Shown piece by piece: positions 7,807-14,007 of a stretch of DNA of 64,000 nt. A model generated the notes under the pieces. The model saw only the letters and a list, made by a program, of their open reading frames with translations. It was not told where the DNA came from and made no database searches. Position 1 is the first letter of the stretch, and the number at the start of each line of letters is the position of its first letter. Source of the stretch: Escherichia coli 042 (GTDB taxonomy: Bacteria > Pseudomonadota > Gammaproteobacteria > Enterobacterales > Enterobacteriaceae); the NCBI RefSeq assembly GCF_000027125.1, contig NC_017626.1; one strand, given 5' to 3'. Position numbers and translations under genes: made by a program.

Positions 7807-8766
7807 ATGACCGAATCAACAACCTCCTCCCCGCATGATGCGGTGTTTAAAACCTTTATGTTCACACCCGAAACCGCTCGGGATTTTCTGGAAATACATC
7901 TACCAGAGCCGCTGCGCAAGCTTTGCAACCTGCAAACTTTACGCCTGGAACCCACCAGCTTTATTGAAAAAAGTTTACGCGCTTACTACTCGGATGTTTT
8001 GTGGTCTGTGGAAACCAGCGACGGTGAAGGCTATATCTACTGCGTGATTGAACATCAAAGCTCTGCAGAAAAGAATATGGCTTTTCGGCTAATGCGCTAT
8101 GCCACTGCCGCCATGCAGCGTCACCTGGATAAAGGCTATGACAGAGTTCCGCTGGTGGTGCCATTGCTGTTTTATCATGGCGAAACCTCGCCCTACCCGT
8201 ACTCACTCAACTGGCTGGATGAGTTTGACGATCCGCAACTTGCCCGGCAGTTGTACACCGAAGCTTTTCCGTTGGTGGATATCACCATCGTACCTGACGA
8301 TGAGATCATGCAACATCGGCGTATAGCTCTGCTGGAACTGATTCAAAAGCATATTCGCGACCGCGATTTAATCGGTATGGTCGACAGGATCACCACGCTT
8401 TTGGTTAGAGGCTTCACTAATGACAGCCAGCTACAAACGCTGTTTAATTATCTGCTGCAATGCGGCGATACCTCCCGTTTCACCCGCTTTATTCAGGAGA
8501 TTGCCGAACGTTCACCACTACAAAAGGAGAGATTAATGACTATTGCTGAACGGCTGCGGCAGGAAGGACATCAAATTGGCTGGCAGGAAGGTAAAATTGA
8601 AGGTTGGCAGGAGGGGAAATTGGAGGGGTTGCAGAAAGGCAAAGTAGAAGGTATGCATGAACAAGCCATTAAAATTGCCTTGCGCATGCTGGAACAGGGC
8701 TTTGAACGTGAGATTGTGCTGGCGACAACCCAACTCACTGATGCTGATATTCCGAACGGTCATTAA
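7807..8766 (+). CDS. yfaD: Rpn-family recombination-promoting nuclease (PD-(D/E)XK, transposase_31-like)
   Basis: 319-aa ORF with the conserved N-terminal HDAVFK motif and a repetitive EGK-rich C-terminal module. Confidence 0.85.
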
Positions 8767-8980
8767 AAGGAGAGATTAATGACTATTGCTGAACGGCTAC
8801 GGCAGGAAGGACATCAAATTGGCTGGCAGGAGGGTAAATTAGAAGGTTTGCAGGAAGGCATGCATGAACAAGCCATTAAAATTGCTTTGCGCATGCTGGA
8901 ACAGGGCATTGATCGTGACCTGGTGCTCGCGGCCACCCAGCTAAGCGAAGCCGATCTGGCAGCGAATAACCACTAATTAA
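8522..8980 (+). repeat. tandem direct duplication (about 215-245 bp units) spanning the yfaD 3' end and ypaA
   Basis: Copy 1 (about 8522-8764) and copy 2 (about 8765-8980) both begin AAAAGGAGAGATTAATGACTATTGCTGAACGGCT. Copy 1 carries an extra internal [16 protein letters not shown] sub-repeat. Confidence 0.85.
8779..8976 (+). CDS. ypaA: small protein duplicating the Rpn C-terminal domain
   Basis: 65-aa ORF preceded by AAGGAG 7 nt upstream of the ATG; near-identical to the last 76 codons of yfaD. Confidence 0.7.
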   Translation: MTIAERLRQEGHQIGWQEGKLEGLQEGMHEQAIKIALRMLEQGIDRDLVLAATQLSEADLAANNH

Positions 8981-9016: not shown

Positions 9017-9820
9017 TCAATAACTACCTTTTATGCGTGGCCCATTTTTGCCTGATTTAAACATCGCCAGTCGTTGATCCAGGGCATCGCTGTAGAGCAT
9101 CGTGTCAACGCCAACAGCGACAAAGTTCGCTCCCCACGCCAGGCATTGCTGCGCCATATCAGGAGCCACAGCCAGAAAACCAGCCGCTTTACCCGCAGCA
9201 CGGATCCGCCGAATGCTGGTTTCAATAATTCGCTGCACTTCCGGGTGCCCGGCGTTATCCGGGTAGCCCAACGAGGCAGAAAGATCCGCAGGTCCAATAA
9301 ACACGCCGTCAATCCCTTCGACGTCGAGGATTTCGTCCAGGTTATCCAGTGCTGTTTTACTTTCCACCTGCACCAACAGACAAAGCGAATCGTTGACTTG
9401 CGCCATGTAATTCTCAATGCGTCCCCAGCGCGCAGCCCGTGCCACACTGGCCCCGACACCACGCTCACCGTAGGGAGGATAGCGCGTGGCAGACACCACC
9501 TGACGTGCCTGATCGGCAGTATCGACCATCGGGATCAGTAGAGTTTGCGCGCCAATATCCAGGACTTGTTTAATCAGCGACTTACTGCCTTCCACCGGAC
9601 GGATCACGGGTTGGCTGGCATAGGGCGCTACCGCCTGTAGCTGGTGATAAAGATCCTGAATGGTGTTTGGCGCGTGCTCCCCGTCAATCAGCAACCAGTC
9701 ATAACCGGAGGTGGCGGCAATTTCTGCCATATAAGAAGTAGTCGAGCTTAACCACAGACCAATTTGCACTTCGCCCTTGCGTAAACGTTCTTTAAAGGGA
9801 TTGGTTAATAATGCGTTCAT
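9017..9820 (-). CDS. rhmA: 2-keto-3-deoxy-L-rhamnonate aldolase
   Basis: Start taken at [13 protein letters not shown] (267 aa); HpcH/HpaI aldolase family, recognised as RhmA/YfaU. Confidence 0.9.
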
Positions 9821-9836: not shown

Positions 9837-11078
9837 TTAATGATGTGCCACGTCGGTCTGCGCAACAGTGCGATTTACACGCAGAGTGAAAATAATCAGC
9901 GAACCGATGACCGCCACCGCTGCCAGCGTCAGTAATCCCGCCGCATCGCTGGCAAACAACGTTTCTGCTTTCACGCGCAGGATCGGGGCAATAAACCCAC
10001 CCACTGCACCAAACAGGTTTACAAAACCAATCCCCGCCGCCAGCGCCGTACCGGAAAGCAGTTGTGTCGGCATCGTCCAGAACACCGGCTGCACGGCAAT
10101 AAACCCGATGGCTGCAACACACAGCGCTACGATCGCCAGTACTGGAGAAAGCAGCCCGGAGAGACCAATACCAATGCCTGCCGCCAGTAATGTCAGCGCC
10201 GCGACATTACGCCGTTCGCCGGTTTTATCGGAATAGCGCGGAATAAGCCAGGTCCCAAACAAGGCCGCGACCCACGGAATGGCGGTGACCACCGACGCCG
10301 TAAAGCCCACTTTTGTCCCCAACAATGCAGCAACCTGCGTCGGCAGGAAGAAAATTAATCCGTAAACCGCCACCTGAATGGTCAGGTAGATAATCGCCAG
10401 TTGCCAGACTCGCCCATTACGCAGCGCATCGCTCAGTCGAGAAGTCACTTTCTGTTGTTCTTCACTTGCCAGTTGGTTGATAAGCAACGTTTTTTCTTCT
10501 TTACTCAGAAAACGTGCCTGCTCCGGCGTGTCATCAAGCCAAAAGAATGTGAATACCCCAGCGCCGACTGCCAGCAATCCTTCAATCACAAACATCCAGA
10601 ACCAGCCGGGATGCCCCATAAATCCATGCATCTCCAGCAGCGCGCCGGAAAGCGGTGATCCCAGTGTTAACGCCAACGGTGCGCCCATATAGAACAGCCC
10701 CATAATGCTGGCGCGATTACGCTGCGGAAACCATTGCGAGGTGAGATAAATCATACCAGGGAAGAACCCGGCCTCCGCAGCACCAAGCAGAGTGCGAACG
10801 ATCAGAAATTTCGCTTCAGTATCGGCCCATGCCATGGCTGCCGAAAGAAATCCCCACAGCAGTGTTGTCGTACCAATCCAGGTTCTGGCCCCCAGTTTGC
10901 GCATCAAAAGATTCGCCGGAACACCCAGAAACGCATATACCACAAAGAAAATGCCTGCTCCCAGCGCATAAGCTTCATTACTCAGCCCGGTATCAATCTG
11001 GTAGGTTTGTTTGGCAAAACCGATATTCGAACGGTCGAGAAACGCCAGCACATACAGCGCCAACTTGACATCCTCCAC
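9837..11078 (-). CDS. rhmT: L-rhamnonate MFS transporter, N-terminally altered or truncated by the adjacent IS
   Basis: 413-aa ORF with an MFS fold recognised as RhmT/YfaV. Its only available start is a GTG at 11076-11078, inside the IS terminal hairpin; native RhmT is recalled as about 429 aa. Confidence 0.7.
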
Positions 11079-11094
11079 GCCCTGAAGAACGTGG
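11073..11094 (+). repeat. IS terminal imperfect palindrome (tnpB-proximal end)
   Basis: TCCACG-CCCTGAAGAA-CGTGGA, 14 bp beyond the tnpB stop. Confidence 0.55.
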
Positions 11095-11107
11095 ATCCCT
11101 GCTACGT

Positions 11108-12316
11108 TCAGGCTGTCGCCTGAATCATTTCGGTGGGTTCCTGCTTCAACGAGCGGCCTGACTGCACCATCTCTCCACAGGCAAGAACGGCGTGCCCCGC
11201 CGCTAAAATGTTACGAGCGCCATTTACATCGGCGTTCGCTGTATATCCACATACCTGGCATCTGAATTGACTTTGTGACAGGCGATTTTCTTTCGCAGTA
11301 TGACCACAGCACGCGCAACGCTGGCTTGTGTACGCTGGCGGAACAGCAAGCAACTGACCGCCACTCCAGAGCTGCTTGTACTCAAGCTGGCGGCGCATTT
11401 CATACCAGCCCTGATCCAGTATCGAACGGTTTAAACCTGATTTTGCCCGGACATTGCGCCCCGGCTGGCTGAGCGTACCCGCTGCTGACTTTGACATGTT
11501 GCTGACCTTCAAATCCTCAATGACTATCATTGCGTGGTTTTTGCTGACGGTCGTTGTGACTTTGTGAAGGTAGTCCCTGCGGATATTTGCGATACGGGAA
11601 TGCAGTCGCTGTATTTTGCGTTTCTGCTTCTGCCAGTTGTTGCTGAATTTGACCCTGCGGCTTAACTGTCGCTGAAGTCTCGCCAGCTTCTTCTGGTTTT
11701 TCTGAAAACTGTTTACAGGCTCAAAGACTGTGCCATCTGACAGCGTGGCGAGTTTAGCCACGCCAGCATCCAGCCCGACCATTGATGCTGAAGGGTGAAC
11801 CGGAGTTGATACTTCACTTTCTGTCTGAATACTGATGTACCACTTACCGCAGGACTGGCTGACAGTGACATTTTTTACAACACCCGTGACCTGACGGCTG
11901 TTCCGGTAGCGCATCCAGCCCAGTTTCGGCAGAAAAATACGGCTGTTTTCCTGATCGAGCTTAACGCCCTGCGGATAGCGGAATGCATCATTCTGTCCCC
12001 GCTTTTTGAATCGGGGAAAAGCAGCCCGATTCTGGAAGAAGTTTTTGTAAGCCCGCTCAAGGTCTTTCAGTGACTGTTGCAATGGCTGTGAGGGCGAATC
12101 TTTAAGCCATTGCGTTTCAGTGGCGTTTTTCCACTCAACCAGCCAGGAAGCCATTTTCCCGTAAGGGATGTATTTATTACCGGCCTCATGATTCTCATTC
12201 TGAAGCGCCAGAGCGCGATTGAAAACGAAACGACATGCGCCTGCGAAGCGCCTCATTTCACACTCCTGTTGACCACCTGGTCTTAACTGGAATTTAAATG
12301 CCTGTAATCGTTTCAC
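11108..12316 (-). CDS. tnpB: TnpB (OrfB) RuvC-like RNA-guided nuclease of the IS200/IS605 family
   Basis: 402 aa with RuvC-I GLDAGV, RuvC-II IVIEDL, Ruv[12 protein letters not shown] and a zinc finger CACCGH...CQVCG. Confidence 0.9.
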
Positions 12317-12323
12317 AGGTCAA

Positions 12324-12929
12324 ATGATACTTTGGTCTATGAAAAAAGAAACCGATATCCGGCGTGGAAGGCATTGTGTTTTCCTGATGCATGTTCACCT
12401 GGTCTTTGTCACCAAATACCGACGCCAGATTTTTGACCATGACGCGACAGAAAAACTACGCACTTACTTTTCAAATGTATGTGCTGATTTTGAAGCTGAA
12501 CTGGTTGAAATGGATGGCGAACCAGATCACGTCCATTTGTTAATTAACTATCCTCCCAAACTGGCGATATCCAGTCTGGTAAACAGCCTCAAAGGCGTAT
12601 CGGGTAGGTTACTGCGACGAGATCGACCAGATATTGCAGTCAGGTATTACTACAAAGGCGTTTTGTGGAGTCCTGGCTATTTTGCCAGTAGCTGCGGAGG
12701 TGCGCCAATATCCGTCATCCGCCAATACATTGAACAACAGCAAACACCTGGTCAGGTGGAAAACCGCGCCTTATATCCCCGCCCTGAAGGACGGGGTTTT
12801 ACAGCGCACTGGATAAAGTCATGGACTCAACAACCTCAATCCAGCCATGCTCACTGGCGATGTCCTGGCCGTTTAACCAACGGCGCAGCATATTCAGTGC
12901 CATCATTGCGCACACTTCCTGACGGATAG
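12324..12929 (+). CDS. tnpA: IS200-type Y1 (HUH) transposase TnpA; annotated ORF is abnormally long at the 3' end
   Basis: HUH motif HVHLL and the C-terminal WSPGYFASSCGGAPISVIRQYIEQ motif. The ORF reads past the terminal hairpin into the yfaY-antisense flank (201 aa against a typical 140-155 aa). Confidence 0.75.
   Translation: MILWSMKKETDIRRGRHCVFLMHVHLVFVTKYRRQIFDHDATEKLRTYFSNVCADFEAELVEMDGEPDHVHLLINYPPKLAISSLVNSLKGVSGRLLRRDRPDIAVRYYYKGVLWSPGYFASSCGGAPISVIRQYIEQQQTPGQVENRALYPRPEGRGFTAHWIKSWTQQPQSSHAHWRCPGRLTNGAAYSVPSLRTLPDG
12777..12796 (+). repeat. IS terminal imperfect palindrome (tnpA-proximal end)
   Basis: CCCCG-CCCTGAAGGA-CGGGG, sharing the GCCCTGAAG loop with the hairpin at 11073-11094. 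Confidence 0.55.
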
Positions 12930-14007
12930 CCAGGCTGTAGCGCGTAGTGCTGAAACGCACACGCAGAGCGAAAGTGCCGTCTGGCGTGGCTAGCGCAAAG
13001 TTGAGATGTTCGTTCTCGAAACCAGAAACAGCCAGTGCCAGCCCGGCAAAATGGTTGGCCCGCCGTTCTGTAATCCAGTGCGCAGTTTGCGCCAGGGTTT
13101 CCTCCTGTGAAGGAACCACTTCACACGCCAGCAATGGAGCACCTGCGCGAGAAAGTTGCAAAGCCAATAAACCACCGGTGAATTGCTCGCTCAACGTCAG
13201 GCTGAACTGGCGGTTTTGCAATTCGCGGCTGATCTGCGAGGGCAGTCCTTCGGTACCTTCGAAAATCACGCTCTGTCCGGCAACACGTTTAACGTCCAGC
13301 CACAGTTTTTCCATCGCCTGTTTCTCGCTTGCCGGTCCGGTGAGTTTCAGTTCGATAATCGGCATAGAAGAGCGATAGCCCATTGTTACCCCCGGCGGCA
13401 GTTGCAGGGTGTCCAGGCTTTGTGCCAGATCGCTTTCCGAACGACCAAATGTAGTCAAACGCAGACAAACCGGCGGCTGCGGTAAAGAAAAACGCTCGCG
13501 CAGGCGCGGCAGGATTTCGTGCTCGACCATCACCTTAAATTCTGACGGTACGCCGGGGGTAAAGAACATCAGGCAACGATTAAGCTGCACGGCAAAACCA
13601 CAGGCGGTGCCTACCGGGTTATTGATAAATTCAGCACTGGCAGGTAGCTCCGCTTGTTTACGGTTGCTCGGTGTCATTACTCGTCCACGTTCGTGGAAAT
13701 AGCGTTCCATCTCTTTGAGCCAGGCCTCATGCAGCACCAGGCCTTCACCTTTTGCTGTTGCAGCGGCGAGTGCGCTTAAATCATCACTGGTCGGCCCCAG
13801 CCCGCCGTTAACGATCAGCACATCGGCGTGCTGACTCCGTTCGCGAAGAATGGTCACTAAGTCATCAAGGTTATCTCCCACCGTATTGCGGCGAGATAAT
13901 GGCAACCCCTGATGAAAGAAAAAATCGGCCAGCCAGGCAGCGTTAGTGTCAACGATTTGCCCGTGTAACACTTCATCCCCGGTGGATAGCATTTCCACTT
14001 TTAACAT
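12799..14007 (-). CDS. yfaY: CinA-like (competence/damage-inducible) protein
   Basis: 402-aa ORF starting MLKVEMLSTGDEVLHGQIVDTNAAW (MoCF-binding CinA N-terminal domain); recognised as YfaY. Confidence 0.85.
   Translation of the reverse strand: MLKVEMLSTGDEVLHGQIVDTNAAWLADFFFHQGLPLSRRNTVGDNLDDLVTILRERSQHADVLIVNGGLGPTSDDLSALAAATAKGEGLVLHEAWLKEMERYFHERGRVMTPSNRKQAELPASAEFINNPVGTACGFAVQLNRCLMFFTPGVPSEFKVMVEHEILPRLRERFSLPQPPVCLRLTTFGRSESDLAQSLDTLQLPPGVTMGYRSSMPIIELKLTGPASEKQAMEKLWLDVKRVAGQSVIFEGTEGLPSQISRELQNRQFSLTLSEQFTGGLLALQLSRAGAPLLACEVVPSQEETLAQTAHWITERRANHFAGLALAVSGFENEHLNFALATPDGTFALRVRFSTTRYSLAIRQEVCAMMALNMLRRWLNGQDIASEHGWIEVVESMTLSSAL

Follow-up and report, generated by a model that had tools for sequence, protein, structure and literature searches.

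A complete IS609-type element adjoins a target-motif-bounded deletion of rhmD and rhmR in Escherichia coli 042

The rhm locus of E. coli 042

The L-rhamnonate (rhm) locus was analysed in a 64,000-nt stretch of contig NC_017626.1 from Escherichia coli 042 (hereafter the window), in which genes were assigned from a list of open reading frames (ORFs) and NCBIfam profile scans. A sequence-only reading of the window, made without database searches, had stated that K-12 has the order rhmA-rhmT-rhmD-rhmR-yfaY and had proposed that an insertion sequence (IS) of the IS200/IS605 family, encoding a Y1 transposase and a TnpB, replaces rhmD and rhmR here and that rhmT is altered at its 5' end. These proposals are borne out: the order yfaU(rhmA)-yfaV(rhmT)-rhmD-yfaX(rhmR)-yfaY is found in K-12 and seven other intact strains, the assignment of the element agrees with family profiles and Protein Data Bank (PDB) relatives, rhmD and rhmR are both absent in alignments to intact loci and in a tblastn search of the window, and rhmT lacks its first 62 nt, encoding residues 1-21. 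We find that a complete IS609-type element stands between yfaY and the truncated rhmT, and that the DNA missing beside it is bounded at both ends by TTAT, the target motif of the element, which most likely caused the gene loss itself.

Homology between the window and the intact loci breaks off at 11064 and picks up again at 12813 (Table 1). The DNA missing relative to an intact reference (L003, 5066-7413) amounts to 2,348 bp and comprises the rhmT start, the entire rhmD and rhmR genes, 219 bp upstream of rhmR, and the final codon and stop of yfaY. The remnant rhmT ORF is in frame with sequence of the right end (RE) of the element up to 11078 or 11111, and the YfaY C-terminus, which reads ...TLSV in intact loci, has become ...TLSSAL. 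The sequence-only reading had placed the element at 11065-12800; the start is exact, and the other end has to be moved to 12812, as the yfaY ORF takes its last four codons and its stop from the IS. Intact copies of rhmD and rhmR, which that reading had named as evidence against a replacement if present elsewhere in the locus, were looked for in the window and in the listed junction-bearing genomes, and neither gene was found: tblastn detected them nowhere in the 64 kb, and a composite probe with pieces of both gave no extra match among the 60 junction-bearing genomes listed. Strain 118UI has a structure 100% identical to that of the window, and the same junction occurs in 185-189 of 5,426 complete E. 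coli genomes (~3.5%) and in four metagenome contigs, so the structure is no assembly artefact.

Table 1. Features of the rhm locus and of the IS609-type element in the window (LE, left end; RE, right end)
Feature	Position	Strand	Basis
rhmA (yfaU), 2-keto-3-deoxy-L-rhamnonate aldolase, intact	9017-9820	-	NF007521 596 bits, cutoff 441
rhmT (yfaV) remnant, without first 62 nt	9837-11064	-	alignments to intact loci
Presumed omega-RNA region: tnpB 3' end and RE	11045-11235	-	family rule (PMC8612924)
IS609-type IS200/IS605 element, complete, 1,748 bp	11065-12812	- (top strand: LE at 12812, RE at 11065)	six other E. coli loci; three empty-site comparisons
RE subterminal hairpin	11074-11095	-	DNA fold -13.0 kcal/mol, z -2.9; stem-loop sequence similar to LE
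tnpB, 402 aa, intact	11108-12316	-	NF040570 (guided TnpB) 388 bits; ISDra2 TnpB (8exa) E 8e-55
tnpA, Y1 HUH transposase (H64/H66, Tyr130)	12339-12755 (ORF starts 12324/12339)	+	NF033573 146.9 bits
LE subterminal imperfect hairpin (core 12777-12796)	12766-12807	-	DNA fold -12.2 kcal/mol, z -2.2
yfaY; last residue and stop swapped for IS-encoded SAL-stop	12799-14007	-	NF002978 806 bits; C-terminus comparison
TTAT target motif adjoining LE, in last codons of yfaY; by family rule presumed TnpB transposon-associated motif (TAM)	12813-12816	-	intact reference CTTTAT followed by CTGTCTGA

Extent and identity of the element

In E. coli chromosomes the 1,748-bp unit, ends included, recurs in at least six further contexts, namely ydcO/ydcL (the insQ site of K-12), yeaQ/yoaG, yedK, yfeD/gltX, yajI and a tetR-like gene. 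Its naming as IS609 rests on RefSeq, where one record is given as an IS609-family transposase, and on its likeness to the K-12 insQ locus: the K-12 copy between ydcO and ydcL, which carries insQ/tnpB and a tnpA pseudogene, is ~98% identical over the 1,748 bp and agrees with the window copy in the divergent tnpA/tnpB arrangement, the ends and the TTAT flank. RefSeq flags tnpA of the window as missing its C-terminus, and a truncated element was therefore considered; it was rejected on the grounds of the identical extent at the six other loci, and the partial flag is explained by the mutated stop codon of tnpA.

IS609 begins CC(G/A)GTGCGC and ends GGATGTCAA (at 11065 in the window), and TTAT lies 5' of LE in every copy examined, in agreement with a published survey of cleavage motifs in which TTAT is the commonest LE site and TCAA the commonest RE site (PMC9956272). 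In place of terminal inverted repeats, LE and RE have similar subterminal hairpins with TTCAGGGCG-containing loops. Empty sites were compared for yajI (K-12), the tetR-like gene (strain ST2747) and yedK (K-12), with yeaQ, ydcO and yfeD outside this check. In all three, joining the two flanks of the IS restores the empty site exactly, the insertion being 3' of TTAT with no target duplication and no loss of flank. A second IS609 flanking deletion, which was sought at these sites, was not found there, and of the four sites compared in this way only the rhm copy has non-contiguous flanks.

At the yedK site, the sequences of strain L2_E1649 and K-12 diverge fully ~17 bp beyond TTAT (a ybcM-like region versus yedL; L006 3246-4164 versus L015 3130-3260), which represents an unrelated island boundary adjoining the IS. 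A plasmid-borne relative, an IS200/IS605 element common on large E. coli plasmids (76-142 kb), is ~98% identical to IS609 over the 3' half of tnpB and only ~60% identical over the 5' half of tnpB and tnpA. One metagenome contig (L018, 227-1966) appeared to carry a different IS at the same rhm junction, and we set it aside as most likely an assembly chimera with this plasmid-borne relative.

Anatomy of the deletion

Read along the top strand of the element, which is the minus strand of the window, LE adjoins CTTTAT in yfaY and forms a normal insertion junction. RE is followed by GTTGGCGC... of rhmT and not by CTGTCTGA..., the sequence that comes after the yfaY TTAT in intact strains. Intact rhmT reads CCGTTTAT and then GTTGGCGC at the breakpoint, with TTAT directly preceding the joined sequence. 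The lost segment thus runs from just past one top-strand TTAT, in yfaY, to the end of another, in rhmT codon 21, both on the same strand; its yfaY-side end is the IS terminus to the base and its rhmT-side end is the target motif of the element. The features that define an adjacent deletion were found together, namely a complete IS that is kept, a deletion that starts at its exact terminus and a distal end at a target-site motif. The top strand has 49 TTATs per 7,701 nt (0.64%), 14 of them inside the lost segment, and the chance of RE joining the base just after a TTAT is ~0.6%. From these sequence comparisons, it is very unlikely that an unrelated deletion produced both ends by coincidence.

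A break-induced or otherwise unrelated deletion beside the IS, such as a cut by TnpB or another nuclease followed by illegitimate end joining, accordingly appears highly improbable to us. The locus does lose DNA by other routes, an IS-free deletion of 3,862 bp being common, but a deletion of this kind fails to explain why one end is the exact last base of RE and the other lies exactly after TTAT. The RE terminus and the rhmT site, moreover, share no microhomology, and the guide expected from a TnpB copy at the yfaY site (CTGTCTGATTCC...) is unlike the rhmT site. It is scarcely credible that the deletion came first, by slippage or microhomology between two TTTAT pentamers with one left behind, and that IS609 inserted there later by chance. 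The closest intact strain has TTTAT at both sites, but the product, the yfaY TTAT joined to GTTGGCGC without an IS, which is also the excised state (junction of CAGCGCCAAC and ATAAAGTCATGG), was found in 0 of the 5,426 complete genomes, and an IS known from only a handful of sites would be very unlikely to hit that one TTAT by chance.

The strand on which both motifs lie also bears on the mechanism. The plus-strand GC skew is -0.04 and the window has the K-12 orientation on the left replichore, which suggests, from the probable direction of replication, that the minus (top) strand is the lagging-strand template. This is where the active strand is expected in the IS200/IS605 family (PMC5027513).

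Origin of the deletion

We consider it probable that IS609 inserted at the yfaY TTAT and that the adjoining 2,348 bp were then lost by way of the target specificity of the element, as a further top-strand TTAT marks the exact end of the lost segment. The sequence-only reading had raised the event history as a question, offering insertion plus adjacent deletion or recombination between copies; the location of both deletion ends at TTAT target sites of the element goes some way towards an answer, and recombination between copies is one of two routes that are still live.

In this first route, IS609 would insert in the normal manner 3' of the TTAT at the very end of yfaY, on the lagging-strand template, and a second copy in the same orientation would land at the rhmT TTAT, for example by a local hop at the replication fork. 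As both copies must sit on the lagging-strand template, their direct orientation would be automatic. The interval would then be lost through homologous recombination between the two direct 1.75-kb copies or through unequal exchange between sister chromatids, a step that a TnpB break at the donor joint or the empty site might stimulate (PMC8612924, PMC10055086). The outcome would be a complete IS between yfaY and a 5'-truncated rhmT, with rhmD, rhmR and the region upstream of rhmR gone. We favour this two-copy route, and hold it with roughly even confidence.

The second route, which we regard as possible although distinctly less likely, is a one-step adjacent deletion by TnpA, in which RE is joined to a downstream TTAT on the same strand with no prior excision. 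TnpA would cleave the 3' end of RE after TCAA, together with the downstream TTAT recognised by the LE guide, and the 3'-OH of RE would be joined past the rhmT TTAT while the 2,348-nt interval is released as a circle. This would yield the same anatomy by way of a single unobserved precursor, in keeping with an IS of low copy number; the recognition geometry is that of the normal integration step described for IS608 and the ISGst elements (PMC10055086, PMC5027513), and both sites lie on the lagging-strand template within approximately one Okazaki-gap distance. However, the TTAT adjoining LE itself should out-compete a distant one, and none of the papers listed by a single literature search on IS605-family elements, TnpA and deletions mentioned an 'adjacent deletion' or a 'flanking deletion'. 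Literature searches also gave nothing on the target choice of IS609 or on rhm loss by phylogroup. Since the two routes give an identical final sequence, they are inseparable from it, and nothing in that sequence favours the single step.

Intermediates were sought by their junction sequences in the 5,426 complete genomes and in metagenome contigs, and the results, together with three other observations, weigh against the explanation by insertion and target-directed loss. IS609 at yfaY with an intact flank (GGAATCAGACAG joined to TTGACATCCTCCAC) was found in none of the complete genomes, and the same is true of LE at the rhmT TTAT (GCGCACYGG joined to ATAAACGGAATTAAAC), for which the metagenome contigs also gave no match. 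A degenerate pattern covering the observed junction and that of the yfaY intermediate retrieved four metagenome contigs, each of which carries the observed junction and not that of the intermediate. In addition, IS609 is a low-copy element (median of two places per genome), so that two insertions 2.3 kb apart would presuppose a bias towards local hops; tnpA appears decayed today, and its past activity must be assumed; and the two haplotypes that carry the junction are not closest relatives in their flanks, which fits an old, reshuffled allele but fits independent origins as well.

Distribution and age of the allele

The genomes with the junction come from many hosts, and one of the strains is labelled O15:H18 ST69. 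A variant-junction probe gave slightly better matches to four of the genomes (PCN033, SCU-102, 19KM1776 and 7CC) than to the others; detailed examination covered PCN033, in which identical junctions lie on a different haplotype. Between the window and PCN033, the IS differs at 32 of 1,748 positions, the rhmT remnant at 14 of 871 and yfaY at 35 of 1,195, and the flanks of the window are closer to those of NRZ14408, a strain with an intact locus (51 mismatches), than to those of PCN033 (87 mismatches). This divergence of ~2% in the IS and both flanks between haplotypes with identical junctions leads us to infer that the allele is old and that its flanks were reshuffled by ordinary recombination. 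PCN033 (L020 5285-5295, corresponding to window 10133-10204) also has an extra in-frame deletion of 72 bp in the rhmT remnant, between short CAGCGC repeats, which suggests that the remnant is not under selection.

The haplotypes may alternatively have arisen by transfer of the allele or by independent recurrence. When the IS609 copies of eight loci are compared, their relationships are star-like and mosaic and do not pair the two rhm copies as sisters; the relationships of flank haplotypes and IS copies, being mosaic, are uninformative on single versus multiple origin. A recurrent origin, in which the same deletion arose in at least two lineages because both TTATs are strongly preferred, seems unlikely to us. 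It would accommodate identical junctions beside 32 differences in the IS, rhm copies that are at least as distant from each other as from copies at other loci, flanks that in each allele follow different intact haplotypes up to 5-57 bp from the junctions, and a third flank type on a metagenome contig. Yet the interval contains 14 TTATs and the genome tens of thousands, which makes it improbable that both sites were used twice; an age corresponding to 2%, combined with normal recombination in E. coli, would reshuffle the flanks likewise; the mosaic IS copies suggest gene conversion; and the window and PCN033 copies have two exclusive states in common.

tnpA, tnpB and the putative guide RNA

TnpA matches the IS200 transposase profile NF033573 well above the cutoff of 55 bits, over profile positions 2-126 of 126, and its PDB relatives are the TnpA proteins of IS608 and ISDra2 (2a6m, 2xm3). 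Its natural stop is mutated (CAG at 12753-12755, compared with TAG in the TUM14759 copy), as in 7 of the 8 IS609 copies compared, and the ORF reads on to 12929, across LE and then 117 nt antisense to yfaY, so that its product would have 196-201 aa and a locus-specific tail. In the eight-copy alignment, tnpA has a ratio of nonsynonymous to synonymous polymorphism (pN/pS) of 0.95 and internal stops in three copies. As tnpA evolves neutrally and has lost its stop codon, the element is probably now immobile. TnpB retains the RuvC residues D183, E267 and D363 and, for the zinc ribbon, two CxxC pairs (at 334 and 353), and tnpB is intact in all eight copies with a pN/pS of 0.28. It therefore seems, from these substitution patterns, that TnpB is maintained without a working transposase.

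By the rule established for the family, the omega-RNA guide comes from the DNA just past RE (PMC8612924). At the rhm locus the putative guide from the flank, 11045-11064, reads GTTGGCGCTGTATGTGCTGG. In the expected place of the omega-RNA, Rfam gave sub-threshold matches at 11052-11181 on the minus strand (HgcC, 20.1 bits with a cutoff of 50; RAGATH-18, 29.5 bits with a cutoff of 44.9), and the fold of the RE-region RNA is not distinctive (z -1.1). Because the deletion put rhmT DNA beside RE, the guide appears to have been re-aimed: the DNA past RE is now GTTGGCGCTGTATGTG..., and intact rhmT alleles have TTTAT directly 5' of GTTGGCGCTGTATGTG. By analogy with the family, TnpB, if active, would cut the wild-type rhmT allele. 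It is tempting to speculate that the Y1 transposase makes flanking deletions itself and that the re-programmed guide, by letting TnpB cut intact rhmT, favours spread or retention of the deletion. We consider this combined scenario doubtful; if true, it could explain the identical junctions on several diverged haplotypes as well as purifying selection on tnpB and not on tnpA.

Consequences for the L-rhamnonate pathway

With the dehydratase and regulator genes and the region upstream of rhmR missing here and not found elsewhere, it is a sound inference that the L-rhamnonate pathway is inactivated. Immediately downstream of tnpB, and co-oriented with it, come the rhmT remnant and rhmA, and a promoter and terminator scan gave no terminator-like site between them and tnpB. 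Given this, and the in-frame ORF from RE into rhmT, the two genes may still be transcribed, with some residual expression.

Loss of the pathway is not confined to this allele. Some rhmD or rhmR DNA is present in 3,980 of the complete genomes and none in the other 1,446 (27%), and most of the rhmD/rhmR loss in E. coli is through a different, IS-free deletion. This is the 3,862-bp deletion, which extends from inside rhmA to the yfaX-yfaY spacer, has the junction GGGAGG joined to GTTGGAC (strain 4114, L013 2940-3000; corresponding to window ~9480 joined to the yfaX-yfaY spacer) and is found in roughly a fifth of complete genomes. Other rhm variants seen are loss of rhmD alone, an insertion of IS1203, and, in one MG1655 record, an rhmD with a frameshift. 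Elsewhere in the window, a 65-aa ORF after rpnE (319 aa; region 7807-8976, plus strand) duplicates the C-terminal part of rpnE and is a partial hypothetical protein in RefSeq; the length of the rpnE region varies among strains.

Significance and relation to known systems

The element was already known and the loss of the pathway is ordinary. The phenotype would be unremarkable, the same pathway being lost otherwise in about a quarter of strains, although the allele marks an E. coli lineage (~3.5% of complete genomes, including the ST69-labelled strain) that is presumably unable to use L-rhamnonate by the rhm pathway. What is worth keeping is a target-site-bounded deletion beside a single-strand transposon, together with a re-aimed guide. 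The locus offers a natural example in which a 'peel-and-paste' element of the IS200/IS605 family, usually regarded as non-deleting, is tied to a precise deletion bounded by its own target motif, and it provides a test case for distinguishing a side reaction of the transposase from recombination between local hops, as well as for a TnpB guide re-aimed at the wild-type allele.

Among known systems, those in which TnpB and its omega-RNA cleave the donor joint and achieve cut-and-copy retention (PMC8612924, PMC10055086) likewise have an intact TnpB and an RE adjoining the flank that supplies the guide. In contrast to these systems, the guide and TAM at the rhm locus match intact rhmT (TTTAT followed by GTTGGCGCTGTATGTG) and not the true pre-insertion site in yfaY, so that the action of TnpB, if it is active, would extend beyond the policing of excision to the cutting of wild-type rhmT.

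As regards transposition, IS609 resembles ISDra2, IS608 and ISGst2: all encode a Y1 TnpA and a TnpB, have subterminal hairpins, insert 3' of a short motif without duplicating the target, and are biased towards the lagging strand. The TAM of ISGst2 is TTTAT (PMC10055086), matching both sites described here. ISDra2, IS608 and ISGst2 are described as excising precisely and inserting simply, whereas the copy in the window is tied to a deletion. In IS608 and ISDra2, tnpA and tnpB are co-oriented, whereas in IS609 they are divergent. Deletions beside classical IS elements arise by homologous recombination between direct copies, or as adjacent deletions by intramolecular transposition, as with IS1, IS10, IS903 and Tn3-type elements. 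Like the deletion at the rhm locus, these leave one complete IS behind and start exactly at an IS end. The rhm deletion differs from them in that it has no tell-tale target-site duplication, and in that its distal end bears the tetranucleotide required by the single-strand transposase.

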